Both the position numbers and the translations under genes were made by a program. DNA of 32,000 nt from an uncultured Chloroflexia bacterium (GTDB lineage: Bacteria > Chloroflexota > Ktedonobacteria > Ktedonobacterales > JADMIN01), in assembly GCA_963718915.1 (NCBI GenBank), contig CAVRAI010000003.1, positions 120,001-152,000 of the forward strand, written 5' to 3'. The notes beneath the pieces were generated by a model. It worked only from the letters and a program-made list of their open reading frames with translations, made no database searches and was not told the DNA's origin. Of the stretch, positions 3,081-15,480 are shown piece after piece. Every line of letters starts with the position of its first letter. Positions within the stretch are counted from its first letter, which is position 1.

Positions 3081-6000
3081 CTATCCACCGATCTCGGCGA
3101 GCGCCCGCTCGACATGTTCGGCATAGAAGCGCTCGCCCAGACGGTTGAGGATGGCCAGCGCCGCCGTGAAGCGTTCGCGCGCACGTTCTGGCTCACCCTG
3201 CGCCAGATGCAACTGGCCGTAGACGTAGAGAGCTTTAGCTTCGGCATAGGGATAAGGCATCGAATGAGCGAGGGAGACGGCCTCATCAAGGTATTTCTCA
3301 GCGTCCTGCCAGCGTTCTTGCTTCATGGCCAGGAGCGTCTTCACGCGCAGGTGATCGGGAGCATAGCTTCTCCAGTGCATCTGCCGGTCTCCCTGCTCGA
3401 GGTAGGCAGCCGCTCCCTGGTCATCACCCGATGCAAGCGCTGCCCAAGCAAGCAACGTGACGGGGTGAATCATGCCGGTTGGAACGAGGTGGTAGTCGCG
3501 TAGCGGCGCAAGGCGCTCGGAAGCCCGGTGCGGAGCGTTGTCCAACAGGTCGCGCTCGGCTAGCGGAAGTTCAACTAAAGCAAGGTGCTCGGCACTCCGA
3601 TGGCCGAAATTAGTCAAGATCTCCTGTACGATCGCCACATCCTCGGACTGCCCCTGGGCAAGTACTAATTCTGCGAGCGTGCTTACAACGAGCACTCTAG
3701 CGCTCAACGCTGACGTCTCGTTTGGCTGACAGAGCGGGAGTGCTTGCTCCAGGAGGCGTTGGGCTTCTGTCCACTCTCCCCGCTGGTACGCATAATACGC
3801 TAGACCGTTGAGCGCGATCGCAACATCCTCTGGAACGCCGACGCGCTCTGCGTACTCGAGCGCTAACCGGAATAGGCGTTGTGCATCCTCGTCTATGCCA
3901 TACTTGCCATAGATAATTGCGCTATACATCGCCGCGTCGTACGAGAGCGACAAGTCTCTCGTAGACTCGGCCAGGCGTACAGCTTCCTTGTAGAGGGCAA
4001 TCGTCTCATCGATCCGAGGCTCACTTCCGTATGCCAGACTTGTCGCATAAGTGAGAGAAGCTTGCGCTTCCAGCTTAACATCGTCTGCTGTCTTGGCCTC
4101 AAGCCATGCTTGTCGCGCAAGATCCTGCGCGGCAACCTCGTCTGCACGTGTGGCATAACCAAAGTTAGCACCCATCACATTAAACACATTGTAGGAATCG
4201 GACACCGCAAGGTGCACAGCACTGGCGGTTGCTGGAGAGACAACATCCGCGATGTCAAAGTGATCGGCAGCGCCTGTTACGACTGCTCCTGCTGGCAAGC
4301 TCTCCTTCCTCAGCGTGGCGAGTAGCCCCGCCAACACCCGATAGCGTTCTATGCCGTGCTGAGGAATGCGTTGCTGATTATCTAGAGTGATCAACAAGGC
4401 CGTTGCTCGCGCTACCCCATCGAGATCGTTTACTGCACGGAACAGGTCGAGCGTCTGATCACCCAGCTGGCGCGCGTCATCCAAGCGGGCGTGACGCCGC
4501 ATCAGGGTGCCTAGCTTCAGGAGAGCCTCGGCCTCACGTACACGATCATCCAACTCATGAGCCAGTCGGGCCACCGTGCGATACTGGCGCTCCGCCTCGG
4601 CGTGCGCGTAGACCGCCTCAGCCTGGGCGCCTGCCTGTAGCGCATACGGCAGGGCGTGGTCGGGCGCGCCCCCTTGGGCAAAATGCCAGGCGAGTTCCGC
4701 CGCCTGGCGACTCGCTCCCGGCAGTTCCTCTAATGCCTCGGCGATATGTCGGTGCGTCGCGGCGACACGCGCGGAACCCAGATCGGCCACAATGACCTCG
4801 TGGATCAGATCATGAGCGAATACATAAGAACCGCCCGCGCCTTCCAACAGGAATTTCCCTGCGCCGCGTCATGCAGCCCATCGAGCGCGTCGGCCTCTGA
4901 GAGAGAGAACGCCTTGCCAACGGCCAACAGCACATTAGGCGCGCTACGCCTGCCTGCCACTGCCGCGATACCTAGCAGGCTCTGAGCATGGGGTGGCAAA
5001 ATCGCTATCCGCTGGCGAATGCTATCGGTGACATCGTCCGGCACGTCCGCAAGTTCTGGCTCACCATCAGCGACCAGCCGGTCGGCGTCAAGTCGCTGCG
5101 CATAGCTCACCAGAAACAGTGGCATCCCGCCCGCGCGCTGGAGCACACGCTCTCTGGCTCCGACCAGCGCCTGATCGCCTGGTTCCTCGATGCCTAGTAG
5201 GTTATTGAGCAGCACGCTGGCATCTTCAGGCTGCAATGGCTCAAGTTCGTGGCGGATAGCCAGCGATTCGCGCATCAGTTCATGCTGCAGCACGCTGAGC
5301 GGGTGTTGCGGCTGCACTTCAGTGCTGCGATACGCGCCGAAGATGCGTAGTGGCGCTTCATCGGTGGCGGCGCGAGCAAGTGTAGCCACCAGATCAAGGG
5401 CGTCGGCGCCCGCCCACTGAAGATCGTCGAGGATGAGCAGCGCGCCTGTTGGGCCAGACAGGTTGGCGAGGTAACGGCCCACCGCCGCGAACATGAGCGG
5501 CGCTCCTGCGGTGGCGGAAGATTCCACGCGGCGCGGGACGAGCGTTGTCTCCGCCAGTTCAGGGAGCAGGCGCACCAGCCAGGAACAGCCTTCCAGGTCG
5601 GTGCGTAGCTGCGATGGATATTGCCCGTGGATGCGTCGCTCTAACGCCGTGAGTATCGGCGCATACGGCTCCTGCCCACTGCTCCGGTGGCAACCACCTT
5701 CCAATACAGCCCAGCCACCGACGCGCGCCATCTCGGCGGCCTCACGCAGCAGCCGTGTCTTTCCGATACCTGGCTCGCCCGAGAGGAACAGCACGAGGTG
5801 GCCCTCGCCCGCCAGGTGACGTTCGAGCAAGGCGAGTTCAATCGCGCGACCGATGAGCGGCGCGCCGGATGTGGGGACGGCAGCCGCGACGCTGGCAGGA
5901 GAGGATATCCGTTGGCGGGCGGCGGACTCGAACATGGTGCGGTCAGCATCGGTCAGATGGAGGGCATCAGCCAGGAGCGCGACCGTCTCTCTGCGTGGGG

Positions 6001-6141
6001 CGCGCCGCTCGCCGCGTTCGAGCGCGCCAATCCCCTTGGCGCTCAACCCCGCCCGCTCGGCCAACTCTTCCTGGTCAGCCCCGCGGCCCGTCGGGAGCGT
6101 CGCAGCAGATCGCCAAACGTGTGGATGGATGCCGTCGCCAT
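3081..6141 (-). pseudogene. XRE-type HTH / AAA+ (STAND-like) ATPase / TPR-repeat transcriptional regulator, reading frame broken twice
   Basis: One continuous domain architecture is spread over three minus-strand frames. (i) ATG 6141, with GGAAGGA upstream, gives MATASIHTFGDLLRRSRRAAGLT, the first half of an XRE HTH. (ii) The frame of ORF 4805..6301 continues from ~6075 with QEELAERAGLSAKGIGALERGERRAP and Walker A GEPGIGKT. (iii) ORF 3081..4847 continues with (GKFLL)EGAGGSYVFAHDLIHEV plus TPR-like repeats. The shifts map to ~6070-6078 and ~4856-4868. Confidence 0.8.
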
Positions 6142-6407
6142 CGGAGGATTTCCTTCCGCGTGCAGGCAATACTAAACCTTTTCCAGGATCTGACACCGCA
6201 ACACAGATGACATCATAGCACGTAATTCGGGCCAATGAATAATCGTGTTGTGAGCAAAGTCGCCGAATTGTGGGAGCGATTGTGGGAGGATGTGGGAGCA
6301 TTGTGGGCGTTGTGTGTCGAGAAATCGCCGCGCGCGGGACACACTTGAGACATCACATCGCGGTGAGGCGCTGGAGCAGGGTCTACAGCCATCCCGCCCG
6401 ATGACTC

Positions 6408-6833
6408 ATGAAAGGAGCGGCAGCTACTATGTTGACCACGAATCAGACACAGAATCGGCCCCGGTCGCCACTCTCCCGCTTCGCGCGGGTATTCGCGCTG
6501 GTTGCTCTAGCGCTGACGCTGGCCGTCGCCATTGAAACCACCATTGCGCTCACCAGGCGAAGCGCGCCCAACCACACCTCCGTCGCGGCGGCGCAACAGC
6601 AGTATCGTGACCCCTATGCTGGCGGGTACCGCACGGCCAGCGGACAACTTTTGTTGCATGAGACGCAAATGAATGAGTCCACTATCGCCTGCGTGCGCAT
6701 GCCGCGCGGGCAGTCTCACTGGCTCGACACGATGGAGCCGTACGTGCTGGCTGATGAGAACGTTCGAGTCATCGGCGGGCAGTATGCGGCGCGGCTGATC
6801 GCGATGGAGTCGGGCACAGCGCTGGCGTGCTAA
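6408..6833 (+). CDS. Hypothetical membrane-anchored protein
   Basis: The likely start is the in-frame ATG 6429, preceded by AAAGGAG (6411-6417). N-terminal hydrophobic anchor FARVFALVALALTLAVAIETTIAL. No recognisable family. Confidence 0.6.
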   Translation: MKGAAATMLTTNQTQNRPRSPLSRFARVFALVALALTLAVAIETTIALTRRSAPNHTSVAAAQQQYRDPYAGGYRTASGQLLLHETQMNESTIACVRMPRGQSHWLDTMEPYVLADENVRVIGGQYAARLIAMESGTALAC

Positions 6834-6880
6834 GCATAGTCAGCGAACACGAGAAAGCACAAGAAAGGTGGATAAATACG

Positions 6881-7270: not shown

Positions 7271-7327
7271 CTAGAAGCTGGGGTAGATGCCACGGATGAC
7301 GCCGAGGCCGCCGAGAAAGTAGACCTT
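7271..7327 (-). pseudogene. Relic 3' end (last 19 codons plus stop) of a second copy of the major capsid protein gene
   Basis: 7269-7328 matches 9849-9908 at 56/60 nt. It translates to KKVYFLGGLGVIRGIYPSF*, identical over the last 18 residues to the C-terminus of the 506-aa capsid protein. An in-frame TGA lies immediately upstream of the fragment. Confidence 0.75.
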
Positions 7328-7521
7328 CTTGGCTCACTGTCCAGCCCGGTTCACGATAGTCCATAAATGGCCTAGAATCTCGCCGTCCGCTTAAGGTTGT
7401 AGTCACAATCGTTCGTCGCTGTCCATGCGCACTGGGGTCAAAATTGGGGTCATATCAACCAAGCTGACTTTCTCATATTACCTGGAGACGATTCCGGAGG
7501 AGCAGGTCAACCTTTGTGAGA

Positions 7522-8589
7522 TTAAGGGTTTTGGAGAGTCCCTCGAAATATTCGAGAATTCAACCCGATTCCTCGCACAGAGATTCCGGTAATGTTTCCT
7601 TGCTGCAACGAAGTGCTATCCAGTAGAACACTCTCCGGCGCGGTATTAGATGTACCAATGAGGTAATCCATCAGAGCCTGTCCTGCTTCCATATGTTCGA
7701 CAGTAGCTCCTGCTAACAGGATCCCTTTATCTTTTGAAGAATAGAATTCCAAAATTTCTGCATAGTAATTGTCTCCAACAGTATATACGCTCACTTGTCC
7801 ACCTGAGGTTAGATCTTTAACGGATGGGACTACGGACGGGTCTCCTTTTCCACTTCCGTCTAGATATGCCGTTTCAACAAGGATTTTATTGAGGCCTTGT
7901 ACTTGCGATGGGTCTGCATTTTCGTTGTTTGCAACATTATCTTGCCCAACAAGAATAATCCTGTATTCGTATGCCTTCGTTACTTGGTTAAGTCGCTTGA
8001 CAGCATACTCCCAAAACGATTTGCCATTAATTATCGTCGTACCATCACCATTAGGATTTGATCCAGGCAACTTAATTGCGGCAAGAAAATGAAGCTCGAA
8101 TGCATAGCCACTTTCAGATGCGTATACGCCCCATGGCTCTTTTATGATCGGATGCGTTGGATCTGTCCACTTATGATCATATGCTCCATATCCGGGAATG
8201 TATTCCAACATATCAAACTCTGTATCTTTGATTGCAGCGTCCACTCTTTGTTTGACCTTAAGTTGCTCTTGCCGTTGTTGTGGAGTTAATGCTGATGGAT
8301 TAGCAATCAAAAGCGCACCGACATCATGGTTTACTAGAAGTGTCTCCCATGTCGTCTGCGGCGCTTTTGTTGGGTTCGCAGTTGCTGCTGGTCTCGTAGG
8401 TCGAAGCGTTGCAGATCCGCCTTGTTGAGCGCACGCACTTACTGCTCCTCCAGCAGTCCCGAGTATTCCGACCGTCAGAAGGAACCGGGATACCCACATC
8501 AGTATTCGGTGTGCAACTTTCCCAGAGTCTTTCTGGCCGCCCTCGAGGTGGCCTGGTCGGGCACTGGATATCCGCTTGATCAACAACAT
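7522..8589 (-). CDS. Hypothetical lipoprotein or secreted protein encoded by a low-GC (foreign-looking) gene
   Basis: ORF 7522..8610. ATG 8589 has the best SD (GAAAGGA, 9-nt spacing); the alternative is ATG 8499 (MWVSRFLLTVGILGTAGGAVSAC, a lipobox-like A-V-S-A-C). Sampled lines in the gene body hold 21/60 and 24/60 G+C, against 36-46/60 in flanking genes. Confidence 0.7.
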   Translation of the reverse strand: MLLIKRISSARPGHLEGGQKDSGKVAHRILMWVSRFLLTVGILGTAGGAVSACAQQGGSATLRPTRPAATANPTKAPQTTWETLLVNHDVGALLIANPSALTPQQRQEQLKVKQRVDAAIKDTEFDMLEYIPGYGAYDHKWTDPTHPIIKEPWGVYASESGYAFELHFLAAIKLPGSNPNGDGTTIINGKSFWEYAVKRLNQVTKAYEYRIILVGQDNVANNENADPSQVQGLNKILVETAYLDGSGKGDPSVVPSVKDLTSGGQVSVYTVGDNYYAEILEFYSSKDKGILLAGATVEHMEAGQALMDYLIGTSNTAPESVLLDSTSLQQGNITGISVRGIGLNSRIFRGTLQNP

Positions 8590-8811
8590 ACGCAAGCATC
8601 CTTTCAGCATAGCCTTGGCACTAGTTTACTATATCGCCCGCATGATTGGCTAGTCGCTGTCAGATGTGCTCGTATTCGTCCGACGTGTAACCCAATGTAG
8701 CCTCTTCCTCACCTGTGGTGCGGACAGTTCGTTCGGAGTCAGTATGGGTAAATATCGCGGGACGATGAAGCTTTGGCAGGCACTTTCCACGCTTAAGAGG
8801 GAACTGGCTTA

Positions 8812-9671
8812 GAACCTGTTAAAGACTCAAGGTCAAGTGGATGAATTGATGCAACATCAAGCAGGCAAAGGCCAAAAAATGCAGGCCCGCCAAGGTCTGG
8901 GCCAAGCGCTCGTAGTCGCGCGCCAGGCGGCGGAAGCGCGCCGTCCACGCGAAGCTGCGCTCGACGACCCAGCGGCGGGGCAAGAGGACAAAGCCGCGTT
9001 TGGCCTCAGGCAGCTTGACGACCGCCAACTGAATGCCGTGCGCGGCCGCAGCCGCGGCGGGCGCATCGCCGGTGTAGCCCTGATCGACATAGGCCAGTTC
9101 CACCGTCTCGCCCGTCACCGCCTGCACCGCTGCCGCCGACTCCTCCACCTGGGCGCGATCCTGTTCGTTGGCGGGCGTCACCACCAGCGCCAACAGCTCG
9201 CCCAGCGTGTCCACCGCGGCATGGACTTTGGAGCCGTTGCGCCGTTTGTGCCCGTCGTAGCCCGCCCGCGCCCCGCTCTCGGCGGTCGATTGGATCGTCC
9301 GGCTGTCCAGAATGACGGCGCTGGGAGACGCGGATCGTCCTGCCGTCCGGCGCAGCAACACGCGCAGGTCCTGCACGATCTGCTCAAAGCAGCCTGCGTC
9401 CAGCCAGCGGCGCATCTGCTGATAGACCACTGGCCACGGCGGCAAATCATGGGGCAGCATGCGCCAGTGCGCCCCGGTTTTCACGATGTAACGCACACCA
9501 TTGAAGACCTCGCGCAGGTTGTGACGACGTTGGCTGGCGGTTTCCGACAACAACGTCAAATAGGGGGCGACGAACGTCCATTCGTCGTCGCTCACATCAG
9601 ATGGGTAGGGGGTGCGTATGGTTGACATACCCTACCATATCACTACTCAACGTCAAGTCTTTAACAGGCTC
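8812..9671 (-). mobile_element. IS5-family (IS427-group-like) insertion sequence, 860 bp, with a TA target duplication
   Basis: Terminal inverted repeats are GAACCTGTTAAAGACT (8812-8827) and the reverse complement of 9656-9671, GAGCCTGTTAAAGACT (15/16 match). TA flanks both ends (8810-8811 and 9672-9673). A single transposase ORF fills the element. Confidence 0.85.
8819..9628 (-). CDS. IS5-family DDE transposase (269 aa)
   Basis: N-terminal [15 protein letters not shown]...[23 protein letters not shown] is typical of the DUF4096 plus DDE_Tnp_1 transposases of the IS5 family. The ORF spans nearly the whole IS, and its stop lies inside the left inverted repeat. Confidence 0.9.
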
Positions 9672-9674
9672 TAG

Positions 9675-9707
9675 GAGGGAACTGGCTTAGGAGGGAACTG
9701 ACTCGAG
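9675..9707. repeat. 16-bp tandem repeat GAGGGAACTGGCTTAG; a further copy at 8797-8811 is separated from these by the IS
   Basis: Copies at 9675-9690 (perfect) and 9691-9707 (degenerate: GAGGGAACTGACTCGAG). 8797-8811 plus G9674 makes a third perfect copy once the IS and one TA are removed. Confidence 0.8.
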
Positions 9708-9800
9708 TTGCATCGACTTACCAGCACTAAATACGAGGCAGAGTACCGATATATGGCGAGAGATTACAAGAATCGACGTGCAGTAGCGAGGAAAACGAGT

Positions 9801-9829
9801 CTGCCCCTCCGCATTTCAGGGAGGGGCAG
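9801..9829 (-). terminator. Stem-loop terminator downstream of the capsid gene
   Basis: CTGCCCCTCC (9801-9810) pairs with GGAGGGGCAG (9820-9829), a 10-bp GC-rich stem with a 9-nt loop. On the minus-strand RNA it is followed by ACUCGUUUUCC. It lies 22 nt after the capsid stop. Confidence 0.6.
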
Positions 9830-9850
9830 ATTTTCCGGTTGGTCGGCGCG

Positions 9851-11371
9851 CTAGAAGCTGGGGTAGATGCCGCGAATGACGCCGAGGCCGCCGAGGAAGT
9901 AGACTTTCACGGTCTCGTCGATGTAGTCGGCGAAGCGGAAGTTGCTGTCGGTGACGGCGAAATCCACGCCCCAGTATTCCTGGTTCGTCTCGATCTCGAT
10001 GGCCGCGGAGACCTCCGGCACAGGGAAAGGCACCGAGACCGGCAGGAAGACCATACATCCCTGCGGGCAGTAGCGATCCAGGATGATCGGGATCTCGCGC
10101 CCCGTGCTCTTGTTCAGATAGCGGGTGACGCGGTACTGCGCCGTGAGCTGCCCCTGATCGGCGCTGTCGCCCGCCTGGACGACGTAGCGCAACTGGCCGG
10201 AGCCCACCACCAGATTGGTCAGCCGGACGTTATCCAGCGGATTCATGATGATGTAGTCGGGGTCACCCGCCGCCTGGAGATACATCCCCGCCAGCAGGTT
10301 ATCGATATCGGCCAGCGCCAGCTTGCCTGTCGCGTCGGCGGGCTGCGCCACCTGCGCGCCAAGCGTCGCGCCGTTCGTCAGGCTGGTGTTGTTGAGCGCC
10401 TGCGCGATGATGCCGTCCCACATCAGCGGCGAGCCAGAGCCATCCACGAACGTCTTGGCGGTGTTCGCCGCCACCGTCGAGAGGGCGGTACCGGAGGTCG
10501 CGGGCGGCGCGGAGACCGTCAGCGGCAGAATGGCGGGATTCACCTCGCCCGATGGCATCACTGTCGCCCCGTCGGCCAGTGTGACCGTCGCGCCAATCGC
10601 GGGCTGTTGCGCGTTCGCGCCGGAGATGCCCGCCTGGAGCCACATCGCGCTATCAGCGGGCAGCGAACCGCCGGAGCCGATGTAGATGTTGTACTGGGTC
10701 GCGTTCGGCACGGTGAAGACGGTAATCGTCAGCGTCGAGGTACTGCCGGTGGTGACGATCTTCGTCACGGGTGAGGCGGTTGTCTCGCCCTGGGCGTTCT
10801 TCGCCGTCACCTTCACCCAGTACGTGCCCGCCGCGACGGTACCTCCACTGGCCGATGTTGCGACTACCGGCGCGGGCGGCGCCATCAGATACGTGGACGC
10901 GCCGAGCAGCCAGCGCTCCTCGGTCATCTTCAACTGATAGAGTAGCTCCGCGATGCGCCGCGCCCGCACGTCACTTTCGAGCGCGCGGCCACGCCACTGC
11001 GCCTGGAAGCTGACGGCGTTCATCAGGCCGATGGTCTGCATCGTATTTTGTAGCGACGCCACCGCGTACGTCACCTGGCTTGGCGTGCCGCCATCCGCCA
11101 GCACGCCCCAGTTGCGCGAGGTGTCGAAGCTGGTGATCGCCTTCCAGTGGACGACGTCAGTTCCGTTGCCGCGCCGCCGTGGCAGCATATTCACCAGCGG
11201 CGTCACCACCGGCACGATCACCTTCGCGGGCGTCTCCAGCTCATAGCCCACTAGCCCGCTGGCCATCGTAATCGCGCGGGTCGCGTCGCCCATCGCCTCG
11301 CGCACCAGCGCCACCGTCTCATCACCTATTGTTGCCCCTGCCGTCCCCGGCAGATAGACCGCGCTTGCCAT
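9851..11371 (-). CDS. Putative HK97-fold phage-type major capsid protein (506 aa) with an inserted FN3/Ig-like domain
   Basis: SD AGGAAAGGA lies upstream of ATG 11371. The gene sits directly after a prohead protease and a small helical protein, in canonical head-module order. Its size and the N-terminal TPLVNMLPRRRGNGTDVVHWK and AELLYQLKMTEERWLLGAS segments resemble capsid proteins as I recall them. Residues ~165-235 (GTVAAGTYWVKVTAKNAQGETTASPVTKIVTTGSTSTLTITVFTVPNATQYNIYIG) look like an FN3/Ig insertion. The fold assignment is inferred, not computed. Confidence 0.7.
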   Translation of the reverse strand: MASAVYLPGTAGATIGDETVALVREAMGDATRAITMASGLVGYELETPAKVIVPVVTPLVNMLPRRRGNGTDVVHWKAITSFDTSRNWGVLADGGTPSQVTYAVASLQNTMQTIGLMNAVSFQAQWRGRALESDVRARRIAELLYQLKMTEERWLLGASTYLMAPPAPVVATSASGGTVAAGTYWVKVTAKNAQGETTASPVTKIVTTGSTSTLTITVFTVPNATQYNIYIGSGGSLPADSAMWLQAGISGANAQQPAIGATVTLADGATVMPSGEVNPAILPLTVSAPPATSGTALSTVAANTAKTFVDGSGSPLMWDGIIAQALNNTSLTNGATLGAQVAQPADATGKLALADIDNLLAGMYLQAAGDPDYIIMNPLDNVRLTNLVVGSGQLRYVVQAGDSADQGQLTAQYRVTRYLNKSTGREIPIILDRYCPQGCMVFLPVSVPFPVPEVSAAIEIETNQEYWGVDFAVTDSNFRFADYIDETVKVYFLGGLGVIRGIYPSF

Positions 11372-11486: not shown

Positions 11487-11759
11487 TCATTCGCCCCGCT
11501 GTTGCAGGCGGATCAGTTCGGCGGCGATGGCCACCTGTACCTGCGGATCGAAGACTTCCCCCGCGAGTGATTCGAGCGCGCGATATTTCTCCCTGGCGGT
11601 GGATGCGCCCATCTGCCCGCGCGCCGTCAGGGCGGACGATTTGTCTACGGGCCGCGCCGCTGGGCCGCCCGCGAGCGGCTGGCTCTCCAGCGCCATCACC
11701 CTTCGGTTCAGCCCGCCGACCTCGCCCGCCATCTGTTGCAACGACGCCTCTATCGTCAT
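11487..11759 (-). CDS. Small alpha-helical protein (90 aa), putative scaffolding or head-assembly protein
   Basis: ATG 11759 lies 3 nt after the protease stop; an alternative GTG at 11774 overlaps the protease end. Third-position G/C is roughly 80%. The sequence is helical and coiled-coil-like (IEASLQQMAGEVGGLNRRVMALES...AIAAELIRLQQRGE). It occupies the scaffold position between protease and capsid genes. Confidence 0.5.
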   Translation of the reverse strand: MTIEASLQQMAGEVGGLNRRVMALESQPLAGGPAARPVDKSSALTARGQMGASTAREKYRALESLAGEVFDPQVQVAIAAELIRLQQRGE

Positions 11760-11761
11760 CG

Positions 11762-12598
11762 CTAGCGCCCGCACGCCCGCATCCAGCGCAACAATTTGAA
11801 TGCGTTATCCGCGAGTCCCGCGGCCAGCGCCCGCGCCAGCGGCTGATCGTCGGCCTGTGGCCCGGCCTCGCGCTCGATGGGCAAGCGCACATCGGCCAGC
11901 AGCGCCCGCGCAGCCACACATACTGTGCAGCCGCAGCCCGTCAGCACTGCCTGCGCCGCGCCATGCAGTCGCGCGCGATTCGCCTGCTCCGGCGTTCTCG
12001 CATCCACCACGGCTGACTCGTCCAGTGCGCCCGGCGCGTCCGACTCATCCACCTCGGTGGCTGGCTCGTCGAGCAGATCGAGCAGCGCGATATCCGGCGT
12101 GGCGTCGCGCACGAACGCGACCCCCAGCGCGTCAGGATTGCTGGGGTTATCCACCAGACTCAGCTCCACCAGGTCATAGCGGGTCGCGACATTGAGCGAG
12201 CGTTGCTCGCCCGCCACGCGACGTCGCTGCCGCTGCCAGACCACTCCACTGGCGCCGATGCTTGCCCCACGCAGGGTGCCGTCCAGCACCTTCTCCCAGG
12301 TGTCTTGCGCGCCGCGCGAGATACGAATGCGGACGTAGATACGCCGCGTCTCGTCGTCGCAACGCACCGCCACGCGCGAGCCGACCGCCTGCCGTCCGTG
12401 CATCTCGCGCACGTTGCCAATCCAGCGGGTGAACGCATCCTTGCTGGCGCCGTAGTCGAAGATCGTGCCGTGGCTATCCACCGTCTCGCTGGTGGCGCAC
12501 AGCTCGATTTCGCGACGTGGGGCATCCACACGCACAATCGGCGCAAACCCGATCCGCGCCGTGCCAGTCATAGCTGGCGTCTCTGACGTATCTGGCAT
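11762..12598 (-). CDS. HK97-family phage prohead (maturation) serine protease, Peptidase S78/U35-like, with an acidic, Cys-containing C-terminal extension
   Basis: Diagnostic blocks are FAPIVRVDAPRREIELCATSETVDSHGTIF (catalytic His context), LRGASIGASG (Ser context) and YDLVELSLVDNPSNPDA. The start is uncertain: ATG 12598 has SD GAGGT at 8-nt spacing, with alternatives at 12571 and 12640. The 359-aa ORF extension to 12841 runs into the promoter and is rejected. Confidence 0.85.
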   Translation of the reverse strand: MPDTSETPAMTGTARIGFAPIVRVDAPRREIELCATSETVDSHGTIFDYGASKDAFTRWIGNVREMHGRQAVGSRVAVRCDDETRRIYVRIRISRGAQDTWEKVLDGTLRGASIGASGVVWQRQRRRVAGEQRSLNVATRYDLVELSLVDNPSNPDALGVAFVRDATPDIALLDLLDEPATEVDESDAPGALDESAVVDARTPEQANRARLHGAAQAVLTGCGCTVCVAARALLADVRLPIEREAGPQADDQPLARALAAGLADNAFKLLRWMRACGR

Positions 12599-12621
12599 AT
12601 CTGACGACCTCAGATACGTCA
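12584..12621 (-). promoter_or_regulatory. 11-bp perfect inverted repeat forming a hairpin over the protease SD and start codon
   Basis: The minus-strand RNA reads UGACGUAUCUG-AGGUCGUCAGAUAUGC-CAGAUACGUCA. The SD-like GAGGU straddles the 5' arm and loop, and AUG (12598) lies in the 16-nt loop. Confidence 0.5.
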
Positions 12622-12728
12622 CCCGGCCGCTCGCCGTCATCCCTCTCCGGCGCTGGCAATATTCTTCCGCGCCCCCATAGAGTCTGCCCTCCCTCCACAC
12701 AACCTCAGTTCGTCTACAAATAGGCAAA

Positions 12729-12772
12729 ACGCCGCTCCCATCCCGAGATCTGCCATCGGGAGGAAGCGGCGT
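12729..12772 (-). terminator. Intrinsic-terminator-like hairpin in the 5' leader of the capsid operon (possible attenuator or antitermination target)
   Basis: The minus-strand RNA reads ACGCCGCUUCCUCCCGA-UGGCAGAUC-UCGGGAUGGGAGCGGCGU, followed by UUUGCCUAUUUGU. It lies ~50-95 nt downstream of the predicted -10 and ~130 nt upstream of the protease start. Confidence 0.55.
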
Positions 12773-12829
12773 CCTGTCCAGACTGACCGCATACGTTGCC
12801 GCACTACACGAACAACTGGCGACGCCACA

Positions 12830-12858
12830 ATCATAGAACATATGTTCTTATTTTGCAA
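12830..12858 (-). promoter_or_regulatory. Sigma70-like promoter (-35 TTGCAA, 17-nt spacer, -10 TATGAT) with an embedded LexA/Cheo-type SOS box AGAACATATGTTCT (12835-12848)
   Basis: The minus strand reads TTGCAAaataAGAACATATGTTCTATGAT. The 14-bp perfect palindrome matches the GAAC-N4-GTTC core of the B. subtilis-type LexA operator (consensus CGAACATATGTTCG) and fills the spacer. Confidence 0.65.
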
Positions 12859-12957
12859 GGGGGCGGGTACAGATGGCGCGATTTCTGGGGGAGATGATGG
12901 GCAAATCTGAGCAGACATGAGGGCCAGTGGGGGTATGCGGGCGTATTCGCGCATGTG

Positions 12958-13025
12958 GCTGGCGGCTGAAGCCGCGCCTACGGGCCTCCGCTCCGCTGCG
13001 GCCGCAAAGCCCGCCTGCGCGGGCT
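12958..13025 (+). repeat. Hairpin-rich intergenic repeat, family 1, copy 2
   Basis: GCTGGCGGCTGAAGCCGCGCCTACGGGCCTCCGCTCCGCTGCGGCCGCAAAGCCCGCCTGCGCGGGCT. It contains the internal hairpin AGCCCGC-CTGC-GCGGGCT. Confidence 0.8.
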
Positions 13026-13133
13026 AGCAGACGCAGATGCAAACGCGCCTAATAGATTACCTGAATAACACGTTAAACACCATAAGGCTGCGGCTATTCC
13101 TGGGCTGTCGGCCTTTTCGTCGTTCGTGGTCCC

Positions 13134-13190
13134 AGCCCGCGCAGGCGGGCTTTGCGAGCGTAGCCCATAGGCGCGGCTTCAGCCGCCAGC
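13134..13190 (-). repeat. Hairpin-rich intergenic repeat, family 1, copy 3 (inverted relative to copy 2)
   Basis: The reverse complement is GCTGGCGGCTGAAGCCGCGCCTATGGGCTACGCTCGCAAAGCCCGCCTGCGCGGGCT. Both ends are identical to copy 2 and the middle is ~11 nt shorter. Confidence 0.8.
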
Positions 13191-13409
13191 GCCTCTGCGG
13201 CGCGCTCCGAATCAGACAGGCGCCGCCATTTGCCTTCACCCTGGTATATACATGTCCGCAGAGCAGAAAGTAGCGTAATGTCTGCTCGTGCGGTACACTG
13301 TACTTTTGGAATCAGGCTTTTGGATTGCGGCTTGCCGGATGGTGGTGAGCGACGAAGGCATTGAGCAAGCGCGAGCAGGCGAGACAACGCCTCGGGAGCT
13401 TCTACAAAC

Positions 13410-15480
13410 ATGACGGCAGGCACAGATAATAACGGAGGCCAGCCCTCCACCGACAACGTAACGACGTCAGATACAGATGCCGCTGTGACGACAGACGCCG
13501 CTGTGGCGACGGAGGCGGCGCCCGATCCCATCCAGGCGTTCGCGGCGCTGGGGCTTGGCGAGGATGCCCTGCGGGCGGTCCGCGAGCTGGGGTTTGGCGA
13601 GCCGACACCTATCCAGCAGCAGACCATCGGCGAGATCCTGGCGGGCCGCGATGTGATCGGCCAGGCGCCCACCGGTACCGGCAAGACCGCCGCCTTTGGC
13701 CTGCCTATCGTCGAGCGGCTGGATGTCAACCAGCTCGCCCCGCAGGCGCTCATCATCGTGCCGACGCGCGAGCTGTGCATTCAGGTCGCCGAGGCGATGC
13801 ACACCCTGGGCAAGTTCCGCGAGTTGGTCTCGCTGCCGATCTATGGCGGCCAGCCCTACGAGCGCCAGTTCCGCGCGCTCGCCCGCGGCGTGCAGGTCGT
13901 CGTCGGCACGCCCGGACGCCTGCTGGATCACCTCAACCGCAAAACGCTCGACCTCAGCACAGTGAGGATGGTCGTGCTGGATGAGGCCGACGAGATGCTC
14001 GATATGGGCTTCATCGAAGATATCGAGAACATCCTCGCCGCGCTACCTGAGCAGCATCAGAGCGCGCTCTTCTCGGCGACGATTCCGCCACGCATCACGC
14101 GGCTGGCCGAGCAGTATCTGCACAGCCCGCTGCGGGTGAGTGTCGCGGCGCGCGAGGCGGTGGCCCCACGGGTGCGCCAGGTCTACTATGAGGCGCCATA
14201 CCCCGCGAAAGCGGAGGTGCTCTCGCGCATCCTCGATCTGGAGACGCCAGAGTCCGCGATTGTCTTTGTCAACACGCGCCGCGAAGCCGACATCATCTCG
14301 GAACAGTTGAACGGCCTGGGCTATCTGGCGCAGGCGATCCACGGTGAGATTACCCAGGCGCAGCGCGAGCGGGCGCTCGAACGCTTCCGCGCCGGGCGGA
14401 CGCAGGTGCTGGTGGCGACGGATGTGGCGGCGCGCGGGCTGGATATCCCCGACGTCAGCCACATCATCAACTACGATCTGCCACTCGACGCCGAATCCTA
14501 CGTCCACCGTATTGGACGCACCGGGCGCGCTGGCCGTAGCGGCGAGGCAATCACGCTGGTGACGCCACGCGAGCGGCGACAACTCCGCCTGATCGAGCAG
14601 GGTATCCATCGCAACCTGGAGCGGCTGCGGCTGCCAACCCCGGCGGATGTGGCGGCGCGGCGACGCATGGCGTTCCGCGAGGAGATCCTCTCGATTCTGG
14701 ATGGCGGCCAGCTCGATCCGTATCTGGCATTGGTCGAAGACCTGGTGGGATCGCGCCAGCCAGCCGATCTGGCGGCGGCGGCCTTCAAGATGGCGGCGCA
14801 GGCGATTCAGTCGCGGCGTCCGGGCCAGCCGATGAACTGGATGGAGATGCCACCACCACCAGCCGCAGCCCGAACCGTTCGAGCAGCGGGAGGAGGAGCG
14901 CCCGGGCCGGAGAGATCGCGGTGAGCGTGCGGATCGTGCAGAGCGCGGTGAGTATGGCGACCGGGGAGAACGTCCCCGCGAGACCCGCGAGCAACGCGCG
15001 CGCGCACGCAGCTTCCTGCGCGATACCGAGCATGGCGCGCCGGGCATGGCGCGGCTCTTCATCCGCGTGGGCCGTCAGGACGGCGTTCGCCCGACCGATA
15101 TCGTCGGCGCGATTGCCAACGAGGCGCATATCCCCGGCGACAGCATCGGCGACATCGACATCTACGACGGCTTCTCGTTCGTCGAGGTGCCTGAGGAAGC
15201 CGCCGAACGCGTGCGCAATGCGCTCAACGCGACGACAATTCGCGGACGCATGCCACGCGCCACGCTGGCCCGACCGGCGGGCGACTGGATCGAGGATGAG
15301 GATAGCCGCGACGAGCGCCGTCCCCCGCGCCCATCACGCGCCAGCGAGGACGAGCGCCGACCACTGCGCGCGCCGTTTGGGGGTCGCCGCGCCGCCACTG
15401 GCGGATTCCGTGGCGGGCGTCCCGGCGAGGGCGGGCGCGGTCGTGGCAATGATCGGCCCGCCCCACGCAAACGACGCTAA
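13410..15480 (+). pseudogene. deaD: DEAD-box ATP-dependent RNA helicase (DeaD/CsdA type with C-terminal DbpA RNA-binding domain), frame interrupted once
   Basis: ORF 13410..14924 carries the Q motif (FGEPTPIQ), AxTGTGKT, DEAD, SAT and HRIGRTGRAG. The +1 frame is open from 14836 (..QPQPEPFEQREEERPGRRDRGERADRAERGEYGDRGERPRE..) and runs into ORF 15046..15480 (RLFIRVGRQDGVRPTDIVGAIANEAHIPGDSIGDIDIYDGFSFVEV, a DbpA-type domain). The shift lies between 14836 and 14921, probably at CCACCACCACCAG. Confidence 0.85.

Follow-up and report, generated by a model that had tools for sequence, protein, structure and literature searches.

A putative LexA-type SOS operator in the promoter of a phage-derived protease-capsid cassette of Ktedonobacterales

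A stretch of 32,000 nucleotides from contig CAVRAI010000003.1 of an uncultured Ktedonobacterales bacterium (Chloroflexota), in the following called the window, consists of chromosomal DNA with about 62% GC and carries on its minus strand two phage-derived genes, one for a prohead protease-scaffold fusion and one for a major capsid protein. Their promoter contains a perfect palindrome of the type GAAC-N4-GTTC. Judged from comparison with related sequences, this palindrome is probably a functional SOS operator, with LexA as the most likely ligand, located in the promoter of a two-gene cassette which has become fixed in the chromosome.

Promoter and operator box in the window

The promoter, which is strong and of sigma-70 type, reads TTGCAA-aataAGAACATATGTTC-TATGAT from 12858 to 12830 of the minus strand (full sequence ccTTGCAAaataAGAACATATGTTCTATGATtgtgg; Table 1). 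It was recovered independently by a consensus promoter scan, which yielded no further promoter-like site on the minus strand between 11500 and 14000. The box AGAACATATGTTCT fills the 17-nt spacer and abuts the -10 hexamer, its final T being the first T of the hexamer, and by this overlap with core promoter elements it takes a repressive position. Transcription would start near position 12823. An earlier note on this DNA had described the perfect palindrome within this promoter, including the matches of 4/6 and 5/6 to the consensus hexamers, had named it the sole GAAC-N4-GTTC of the window, and had seen in it an operator placed for repression in front of head genes. The first two statements were confirmed, and the geometry proved to be conserved in the 29 sites described below. 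The designation as capsid-operon promoter holds insofar as the protease and capsid genes are headed by it, but not directly, as a structured leader of about 145 nt lies in between.

Taken alone the box could be due to chance, since at least one bare 12-mer GAAC-N4-GTTC was obtained in 24 of 100 dinucleotide shuffles of the window (mean 0.26 per shuffle) and boxes with one mismatch were not enriched (6 seen versus 9.3 expected). The composite pattern TTG-N8-GAA-N5-GTTCTA-N3-T occurred in none of the 100 shuffles, and conservation of the unit across homologous loci raises it far above chance. A box with one mismatch in the leader of the window (12700-12711) was rejected as an operator because it is not conserved in relatives. 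An extended -10 reading of the promoter was likewise rejected, as the TG of the box is 3 nt and not 1 nt away from the hexamer and as an asymmetric variant of the box is found in both orientations.

Conservation of promoter and box in relatives

Comparison loci carry labels from L001 onwards. The site alignment and logo comprised 29 distinct homologous promoter sites from loci of uncultured Ktedonobacterales, 16 of which came from species-representative genomes. An architecture shared across subfamilies consists of TTGnnn, 4-5 nt, (A/T)AGAA[C/A/T]-N4-GTTC and, directly following, TAnnnT. While the 5-6 nt between the -35 hexamer and the box vary freely, the half-sites stay essentially invariant: the G, A and A of the left one are found in 29/29 sites at each position, and the G, T, T and C of the right one in 28, 27, 29 and 29. 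The T, T and G of the -35 hexamer are kept in 26, 26 and 23 of the 29 sites, and the fixed bases of TAnnnT in 28 at each position. In 843 kb of Ktedonobacterales DNA 29 perfect boxes occur, 18 of them just upstream of the protease gene, and the remaining 11 match the 8.7 expected from base composition. The core of the box is constant across many species and across cassettes the proteins of which have diverged to about 60% identity, and about 60 distant phage protease loci (40-50% identity) have no box at this position. At L135:353 a perfect box shares bases with a start codon; it was set aside as probably coincidental.

A second promoter class, which is equally conserved, reads TTGCGn-N4/5-TAGAAC-AYYT-GACC-TACACT and thus has an asymmetric box; its leader is short and usually without hairpin. 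It was found upstream of the protease gene in L011, L012, L087, L104, L110, L115, L116, L117, L120, L122, L129 and L132. In L019 the asymmetric box is flipped (GGTC-N4-GTTC) and abuts the -10 hexamer of a divergent promoter. As it occurs in both orientations relative to the -10 hexamer, the asymmetric box behaves as a protein site and not as a promoter extension.

Association with imuB-dnaE2 operons and identity of the regulator

A stray perfect box at L119:5328 is located 33 nt upstream of an imuB-like gene, which is followed by genes for a DUF6504 protein and for dnaE2 (the half that is present matches the NCBIfam error-prone DNA polymerase with E 3.6e-138). Homologs of the L119 ImuB protein with 36-47% identity led to five further imuB-DUF6504-dnaE2 operons, the boxes of which are listed in Table 1. 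The three perfect ones have the form TAGAAC-N4-GTTCTT, lie 33-40 nt before the start codon, and are each the sole perfect box of their locus, with an expectation of about 0.0005 per 60 nt. In the imuB promoters the box is positioned just after the -10 hexamer, and the one of L140 lies in the intergenic region between imuB and a divergent DinB-family gene. Both the box of imuB and a promoter of the cassette (TAGAACATATGATCTATAGT, with its leader) are located on the single 8.7-kb contig of L119. Cassettes of imuB/imuC are characteristically regulated by LexA via their own SOS boxes (PMC3901139), and the motif documented for LexA in Firmicutes and Actinobacteria has the form GAAC-N4-GTTC (PMC3323433). 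The earlier assignment of the box to the LexA type is thus supported by the recurrence of the extended motif at imuB-dnaE2 operons, whereas the Bacillus-type host which was assumed along with it has to be replaced by Ktedonobacterales with their GC-rich DNA.

A tblastn search with RecA and LexA gave no match in the 843 kb of Ktedonobacterales loci, no Ktedonobacteria were among the top 60 matches of Bacillus subtilis LexA in PLSDB, and a literature search for LexA motifs of Chloroflexi or Ktedonobacteria returned nothing usable. The LexA protein of Dehalococcoides reportedly uses AGAAC-N4-GTTCT.

The mutagenesis operons of L119 and L136-L140 consist of an imuB-like gene, a DUF6504 gene (about 90 amino acids) and dnaE2, and have no imuA. 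They resemble in this the imuY-(small ORF)-imuC arrangement of Deinococcus deserti (PMC3901139). Direct repeats similar to CTCCGGWCA are found upstream of the imuB-dnaE2 promoters in L119 (5170-5245), L137 (5850-5895), L136 (1895-1935) and L139 (1880-1925) and may represent a second regulatory site.

The leader RNA

The leader, which extends from the -10 hexamer to the family-conserved start codon, contains a conserved core. Across 14 diverse sequences the C, G, G, U, A and G of its small hairpin never change, and pairing in the 3-bp stem reaches 100%. A covariance model of the leader element matched positions 12718-12794 of the window with 84.6 bits and recovered the element in more than 30 cassette leaders plus extra units. 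The alignment fold contains 6 pairs with compensatory double changes; 96.9% of the cells are paired, compared to 47-55% when the partners are slid, and the level of 20 compensatory cells was reached in 0/500 shuffles. A search of positions 12400-13500 against Rfam 15 in E-value mode gave no match of the leader to any family. Matches to CRISPR-DR28, MIR1437 and isrG were judged to be chance and fall on palindromes resembling repetitive extragenic palindromic (REP) elements further upstream. These nested REP-like palindromes, including GCCCGCCTGCGCGGGC hairpins, occupy 12940-13210 between the promoter and the helicase gene, and copies are present at other positions in L092, L095 and L133. Seven matches of the leader core pattern in IMG/VR were likewise due to chance, all within coding regions of unrelated GC-rich contigs.

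The promoter-operator-leader module also heads other phage-derived genes in related genomes, for example one similar to head-tail adaptors, which points to a small group of domesticated head genes with a link to SOS. An adaptor-like gene 7 kb away from the cassette in the complete genome CP126532.1 is preceded by the leader element and has its own promoter TTGCGA-aaagt-AGAAACTATGTTC-TATAGT. Extra elements were also found after a YggT-like gene (L099) and on the opposite strand (L019). An orphan unit in L109 (5527-5735) consists of a promoter with box (TTGCAA-tcat-AGAAAATATGTTC-TATACT) and, directly adjoining, a hairpin of terminator-like form; another hairpin is found just upstream, and no gene follows on the same strand. 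Its neighbours are BamB-like genes on the other strand. The leader RNA is absent from the imuB promoters, which makes operator and leader separable layers.

The long hairpin of the leader presumably attenuates or processes the transcript. As its tail is U-poor or weak in several subfamilies, the term terminator can be applied to it only provisionally, and a simple terminator scan (loop of 3-8 nt, no more than 20 pairs counted, 5 or more T among 8 bases) did not report it. In the window a simple antiterminator pairing can be seen between the 5' end of the leader and the left hairpin arm; it was discarded, since by eye it is not conserved in other subfamilies.

Genes of the cassette and their genomic context

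The protease shows membership in the PHROG head maturation proteases (E 2e-30). The capsid protein belongs to phrog_13692 (E 4e-56) and has tblastn matches to annotated major head proteins, and by sequence membership both are assigned to an HK97-type head module. The shell protein is not an encapsulin, as it matches a phage capsid family and is preceded by a prohead protease-scaffold gene. Against the closest relatives the ratio of nonsynonymous to synonymous substitution rates (dN/dS) was 0.06-0.10 for the capsid gene, at dS 0.27-0.57, and 0.15-0.18 for the protease gene. These low values indicate that the cassette is maintained by selection and is not a decaying prophage.

Intact homologs of the protease have about 390 amino acids, and the copy of the window has about three frameshifts relative to them. 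Its longest piece extends from 12640 to 11762 (292 amino acids), followed by a C-terminal piece at 11774-11487 (95 amino acids), and the reading frame from the family start ends after 13 codons. The cause is either a faulty assembly or true decay of the copy. The protease is broken similarly in L133, a metagenome-assembled genome (MAG) from Microflora Danica, which makes assembly indels possible in place of pseudogenisation; the Microflora Danica MAGs are long-read assemblies.

The prophage setting assumed in the earlier note was not borne out. The cassette comprises two genes between a host DEAD-box helicase gene and host regulator genes, an arrangement which is syntenic in relatives, and the closest relatives of the window have the pair at the same locus adjoining the helicase. 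Genes for portal, terminase, tail, lysis or integrase proteins and att sites were not seen around the cassette of the window; no integrase, replication or repressor genes adjoin it in the window or in L005, and no regulator gene travels with it. At the 3' end of the capsid gene an insertion with low GC content (about 51%) carries an IS5-type/DDE transposase gene (8819-9628) and an open reading frame of 362 amino acids without Pfam match (7522-8610). It is flanked by a duplication of about 58 bp, of which the copy of the capsid 3' end is at 7271-7328, and is absent from L091, L092, L096 and L133. Weak matches of the insertion sequence to Hymenobacter and Mesorhizobium are misleading about taxonomy. 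Past the insertion synteny with relatives resumes in the host regulator genes. Downstream of the cassette, at 3081-6301, an HTH_31-AAA_16 gene (498 amino acids) and a TPR gene (588 amino acids) are adjacent to each other, and no link of these to cassette regulation was seen. L091 matches positions 4521-6835 of the window, a span which takes in the HTH-AAA gene and the beginning of the TPR one.

Table 1. Features of the window and boxes upstream of imuB in comparison loci
Feature	Position or locus	Strand	Remarks
-35 hexamer TTGCAA	12853..12858	-	4/6 consensus; TTGACA, TTGAAA or TTGCGA in relatives
Candidate operator AGAACATATGTTCT, LexA type (Cheo type)	12835..12848	.	perfect 14-bp palindrome
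-10 hexamer TATGAT	12830..12835	-	5/6 consensus
Small leader hairpin CGG-UCAGU-CUG	12780..12789	-	family consensus CGG-UGAGY-CYG
Long GC-rich hairpin (about 20 bp), then GUUUUGCCUAUUU	12726..12775	-	RNA fold; terminator-like
Shine-Dalgarno GGAGGGAGGG (12696-12687) and family-conserved start ATG (12678-12676; MGARK...)	12676..12696	-	intact homologs start here
Prohead protease-scaffold fusion gene	11487..12678	-	split by frameshifts in the window
HK97-type major capsid protein gene (506 amino acids)	9851..11371	-	Pfam SU10_MCP 35.3 bits, cutoff 24.1
Insertion of about 2.5 kb at 3' end of capsid gene	7329..9848	.	marks cassette end, outside regulatory unit
DEAD-box helicase gene	13410-14924	divergent from cassette	upstream of promoter
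Box upstream of imuB, TATATAGAACGTAAGTTCTTATT	L119		perfect
Box upstream of imuB, TATATCTAGAACACATGTTCTTGTG	L136		perfect
Box upstream of imuB, CATATCTAGAACAGAAGTTCTTGTG	L137		perfect
Box upstream of imuB, GTACAAATGTTC	L138		one mismatch
Box upstream of imuB, GAATATATGTTC	L139		one mismatch
Box upstream of imuB, CGAACAGGCATTCG	L140		one mismatch

More than 1600 homologs of the protease were found, many of them 85-90% identical, which are from Ktedonobacterales where named and in many cases annotated as prohead protease, also under the name HK97 prohead protease. A scan with one genome per species gave 45 loci, all from uncultured Ktedonobacterales or Ktedonobacteria MAGs, with 2-3 copies in some genomes. 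In CP126532.1 copies are located at 2.85 and 3.37 Mb, and the protease-capsid pair is found alone among metabolic genes. Plasmid and phage collections contained only distant relatives of the capsid protein. A capsid gene with 81% identity on a contig labelled as Proteobacteria MAG (L106, JAJPIU010000228.1) is probably a binning error.

Fuller relatives are known as well. L111 (7456-17400, from about 3.37 Mb of CP126532.1) and, like it without a box, L001, L114 and L123 contain head and packaging genes only, namely those for protease-scaffold (801 amino acids), capsid, a 136-amino-acid protein, an adaptor-like protein, a 103-amino-acid protein, the portal, a protein of HTH/terS-like type and the large terminase; tail genes were not seen in relatives of this type. 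Downstream of the capsid gene in L087, L090, L104, L112, L120 and L122 a recurrent set was found, which consists of a YggT-family membrane protein, an adaptor-like protein of about 300 amino acids (phrog_442), proteins of about 106 and about 190 amino acids, and an Exo_endo_phos nuclease/phosphatase. In L088/L089 (12033-21319) and in L002/L003, which are both ends of IMGVR_UViG_3300005573_001593, an element with genes for an integrase, Arc, HTH_17, VRR_NUC and others appears to have integrated into a class-1 capsid gene, leaving capsid residues 11-125 on one side and 58-506 on the other.

Proposed mechanism and alternative explanations

By analogy to the established biology of LexA, the repressor would in the undamaged cell cover the spacer and the upstream edge of the -10 hexamer and thereby block RNA polymerase. 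Upon DNA damage activated RecA would trigger self-cleavage of LexA, and transcription would set in at the predicted start. The leader hairpin probably forms a second gate before the capsid genes, be it by termination and read-through, by processing or by stability; since a leader with a terminator-like hairpin lies between promoter and genes, release of LexA alone may not suffice for capsid expression. The products would then assemble as capsid-like shells during the SOS response.

Several findings weigh against this reading. At the fourth position of the left half-site 15 of the 29 sites have C, 10 have A and 4 have T. The GAAC-N4-GACC box of the second promoter class has two mismatches, and canonical LexA should bind it poorly; it could indicate another factor, or tuned or weakened repression. 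Some family members, namely L001, L014, L016 and the fuller relative L111, have no box at all. The identity of the regulator is deduced from the identity of the motif plus its association with imuB-dnaE2, and among the six imuB loci an origin from Ktedonobacterales is demonstrable for L119 and L136 only. Most transcripts could end at the strong hairpin, in which case derepression might not reach the capsid genes, and the frameshifts and early stop in the protease gene of the window have to be counted here as well.

That the palindrome is a chance product of an AT-rich promoter without any regulatory role is effectively refuted by the comparative data. The frequency of the bare 12-mer in shuffled windows and the lack of enrichment of one-mismatch sites would be in line with it, but position and sequence are kept in 29 distinct sites while the flanks vary, the composite pattern never appeared in the shuffles, and 18/29 perfect boxes in related DNA are at this exact position. 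An unlikely explanation, if the most plausible one besides LexA, is that another regulator, such as a phage-type repressor or a Q-like antiterminator, binds the palindrome and that its likeness to a LexA box is coincidental. The Q protein of lambdoid phages binds between the -35 and -10 hexamers of the late promoter and causes read-through of a promoter-proximal terminator into the structural genes, and the architecture found here is similar, with a site within the spacer, then a short leader and a terminator-like hairpin, and finally head genes. Neither the second promoter class nor the variable fourth base agrees with an ideal LexA site, and the leader element is specific to phage-derived genes and lacking at imuB. 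On the other hand the same extended motif of 14-16 bp precedes imuB-dnaE2, a host SOS operon without the leader, and the constancy of the core across species and diverged cassettes fits a host factor better than the specificities of phage immunity or Q. No regulator gene accompanies the cassette, the perfect dyad suits a dimeric repressor, and hexamers near to consensus with a 17-nt spacer would need repression and not activation.

A little less probable again is that the promoter mainly yields a short non-coding RNA of about 100 nt which ends at the hairpin, the capsid genes being little expressed or transcribed from elsewhere. The strength of the hairpin with its U-rich tail would suit such a product, as would the orphan unit of L109, in which promoter, box and immediate hairpin are followed by no gene on the same strand. 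Yet more than 30 loci show a tight linkage of the unit to the start of the protease gene, the hairpin lying 40-110 nt away from a strong Shine-Dalgarno sequence, the U-tract is poor in several subfamilies, and the promoter scan offered no alternative site on that strand. Promoters of the second class, which share the left half-site, drive the protease gene directly without a hairpin. A LexA operator in front of the cassette remains the preferred reading.

Significance and comparison with known systems

LexA boxes and LexA-controlled operons of phage origin are already known. The present data would extend the experimentally known SOS operator GAAC-N4-GTTC to an uncultured and little-studied order of Chloroflexota, the Ktedonobacterales, for which imuB-dnaE2 and the cassette are the first candidates for members of the regulon. 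They describe a bacterial lineage in which capsid and protease genes are kept by themselves under strong purifying selection and are apparently tied to the DNA-damage response by a reusable promoter-operator-leader module, and they add a new conserved structured RNA with covariation support outside Rfam. In the searchable literature no conserved standalone capsid cassette under purifying selection with this operator and an undescribed leader RNA was found. The arrangement suggests that these bacteria of the soil make capsid shells on purpose upon DNA damage and raises the testable question which role capsid shells have without an accompanying phage genome. As a tentative proposal, which we hold to be rather doubtful as a whole, these bacteria might keep a domesticated SOS-induced capsid system in which standalone protease-scaffold and capsid genes plus dispersed adaptor-like genes share a single type of LexA-operated promoter and the undescribed cis-regulatory leader RNA acts as second switch, for example as a conditional terminator which is read through only with a partner phage or host factor; the shells would have a host or satellite role, for instance in phage interference, in DNA transfer or as a stress compartment.

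The box has the same GAAC-N4-GTTC dyad with AT-rich centre as the Cheo box, the LexA/DinR operator of B. subtilis and other Gram-positive bacteria (consensus CGAACATATGTTCG), which likewise overlaps core promoter elements and precedes DNA-damage genes, represented here by imuB-dnaE2. It differs by its A/T flanks (AGAAC...GTTCT) in place of C/G and by its host, which belongs to the Chloroflexota. In the PR'/tR'/Q system of lambdoid phages, too, a strong promoter has a protein site in its spacer and is followed by a short leader with a terminator at its end and by head genes. No Q-like gene is linked to the cassette, however, and its site forms a perfect dyad which is identical with the imuB SOS box. 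Capsid-forming phage-inducible chromosomal islands (PICIs) and gene transfer agents share with the present system chromosomal phage head genes without tail genes. The fuller relatives such as L111 strengthen this likeness, and so do the dispersed cassette-related genes with one common regulatory module, whereas the window has two genes only and shows neither integrase nor att sites. To our knowledge direct control by a LexA box plus such a leader is not known for PICIs or gene transfer agents.

In phage GIL01 of Bacillus thuringiensis host LexA directly represses phage promoters (PMC4551915). The likeness to the control proposed for the cassette lies in host LexA as direct repressor of phage-derived promoters; in GIL01, LexA works with the phage protein gp7 at the promoter of the switch between lysogeny and lytic growth, and not at a standalone structural cassette. 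The earlier note had called LexA control of structural genes unusual, which is overstated, as operon I of the Staphylococcus aureus pathogenicity islands (SaPIs) is a precedent: there LexA represses genes for capsid morphogenesis, capsid size and packaging, which are SOS-induced as are the resident prophages (PMC5052747, PMC3152322). The SaPIs have an integrase, replication genes, terS and capsid-size factors and use the capsid protein of a helper phage, while the cassette of the window has its own capsid protein and protease and a structured leader RNA, with no integrase, replication or terminase genes nearby. It is not a member of the satellites of SaPI/PICI type, as no integrase, replication module or repressor flanks it in the window or in L005. 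Common to both would be LexA-type control of morphogenesis genes in a phage-derived chromosomal element. This analogy suggests an interplay with induced prophages, and our best guess is that the shells would interact with SOS-induced prophages by interference or in a satellite-like manner, the alternative being a particle-forming system similar to a gene transfer agent.

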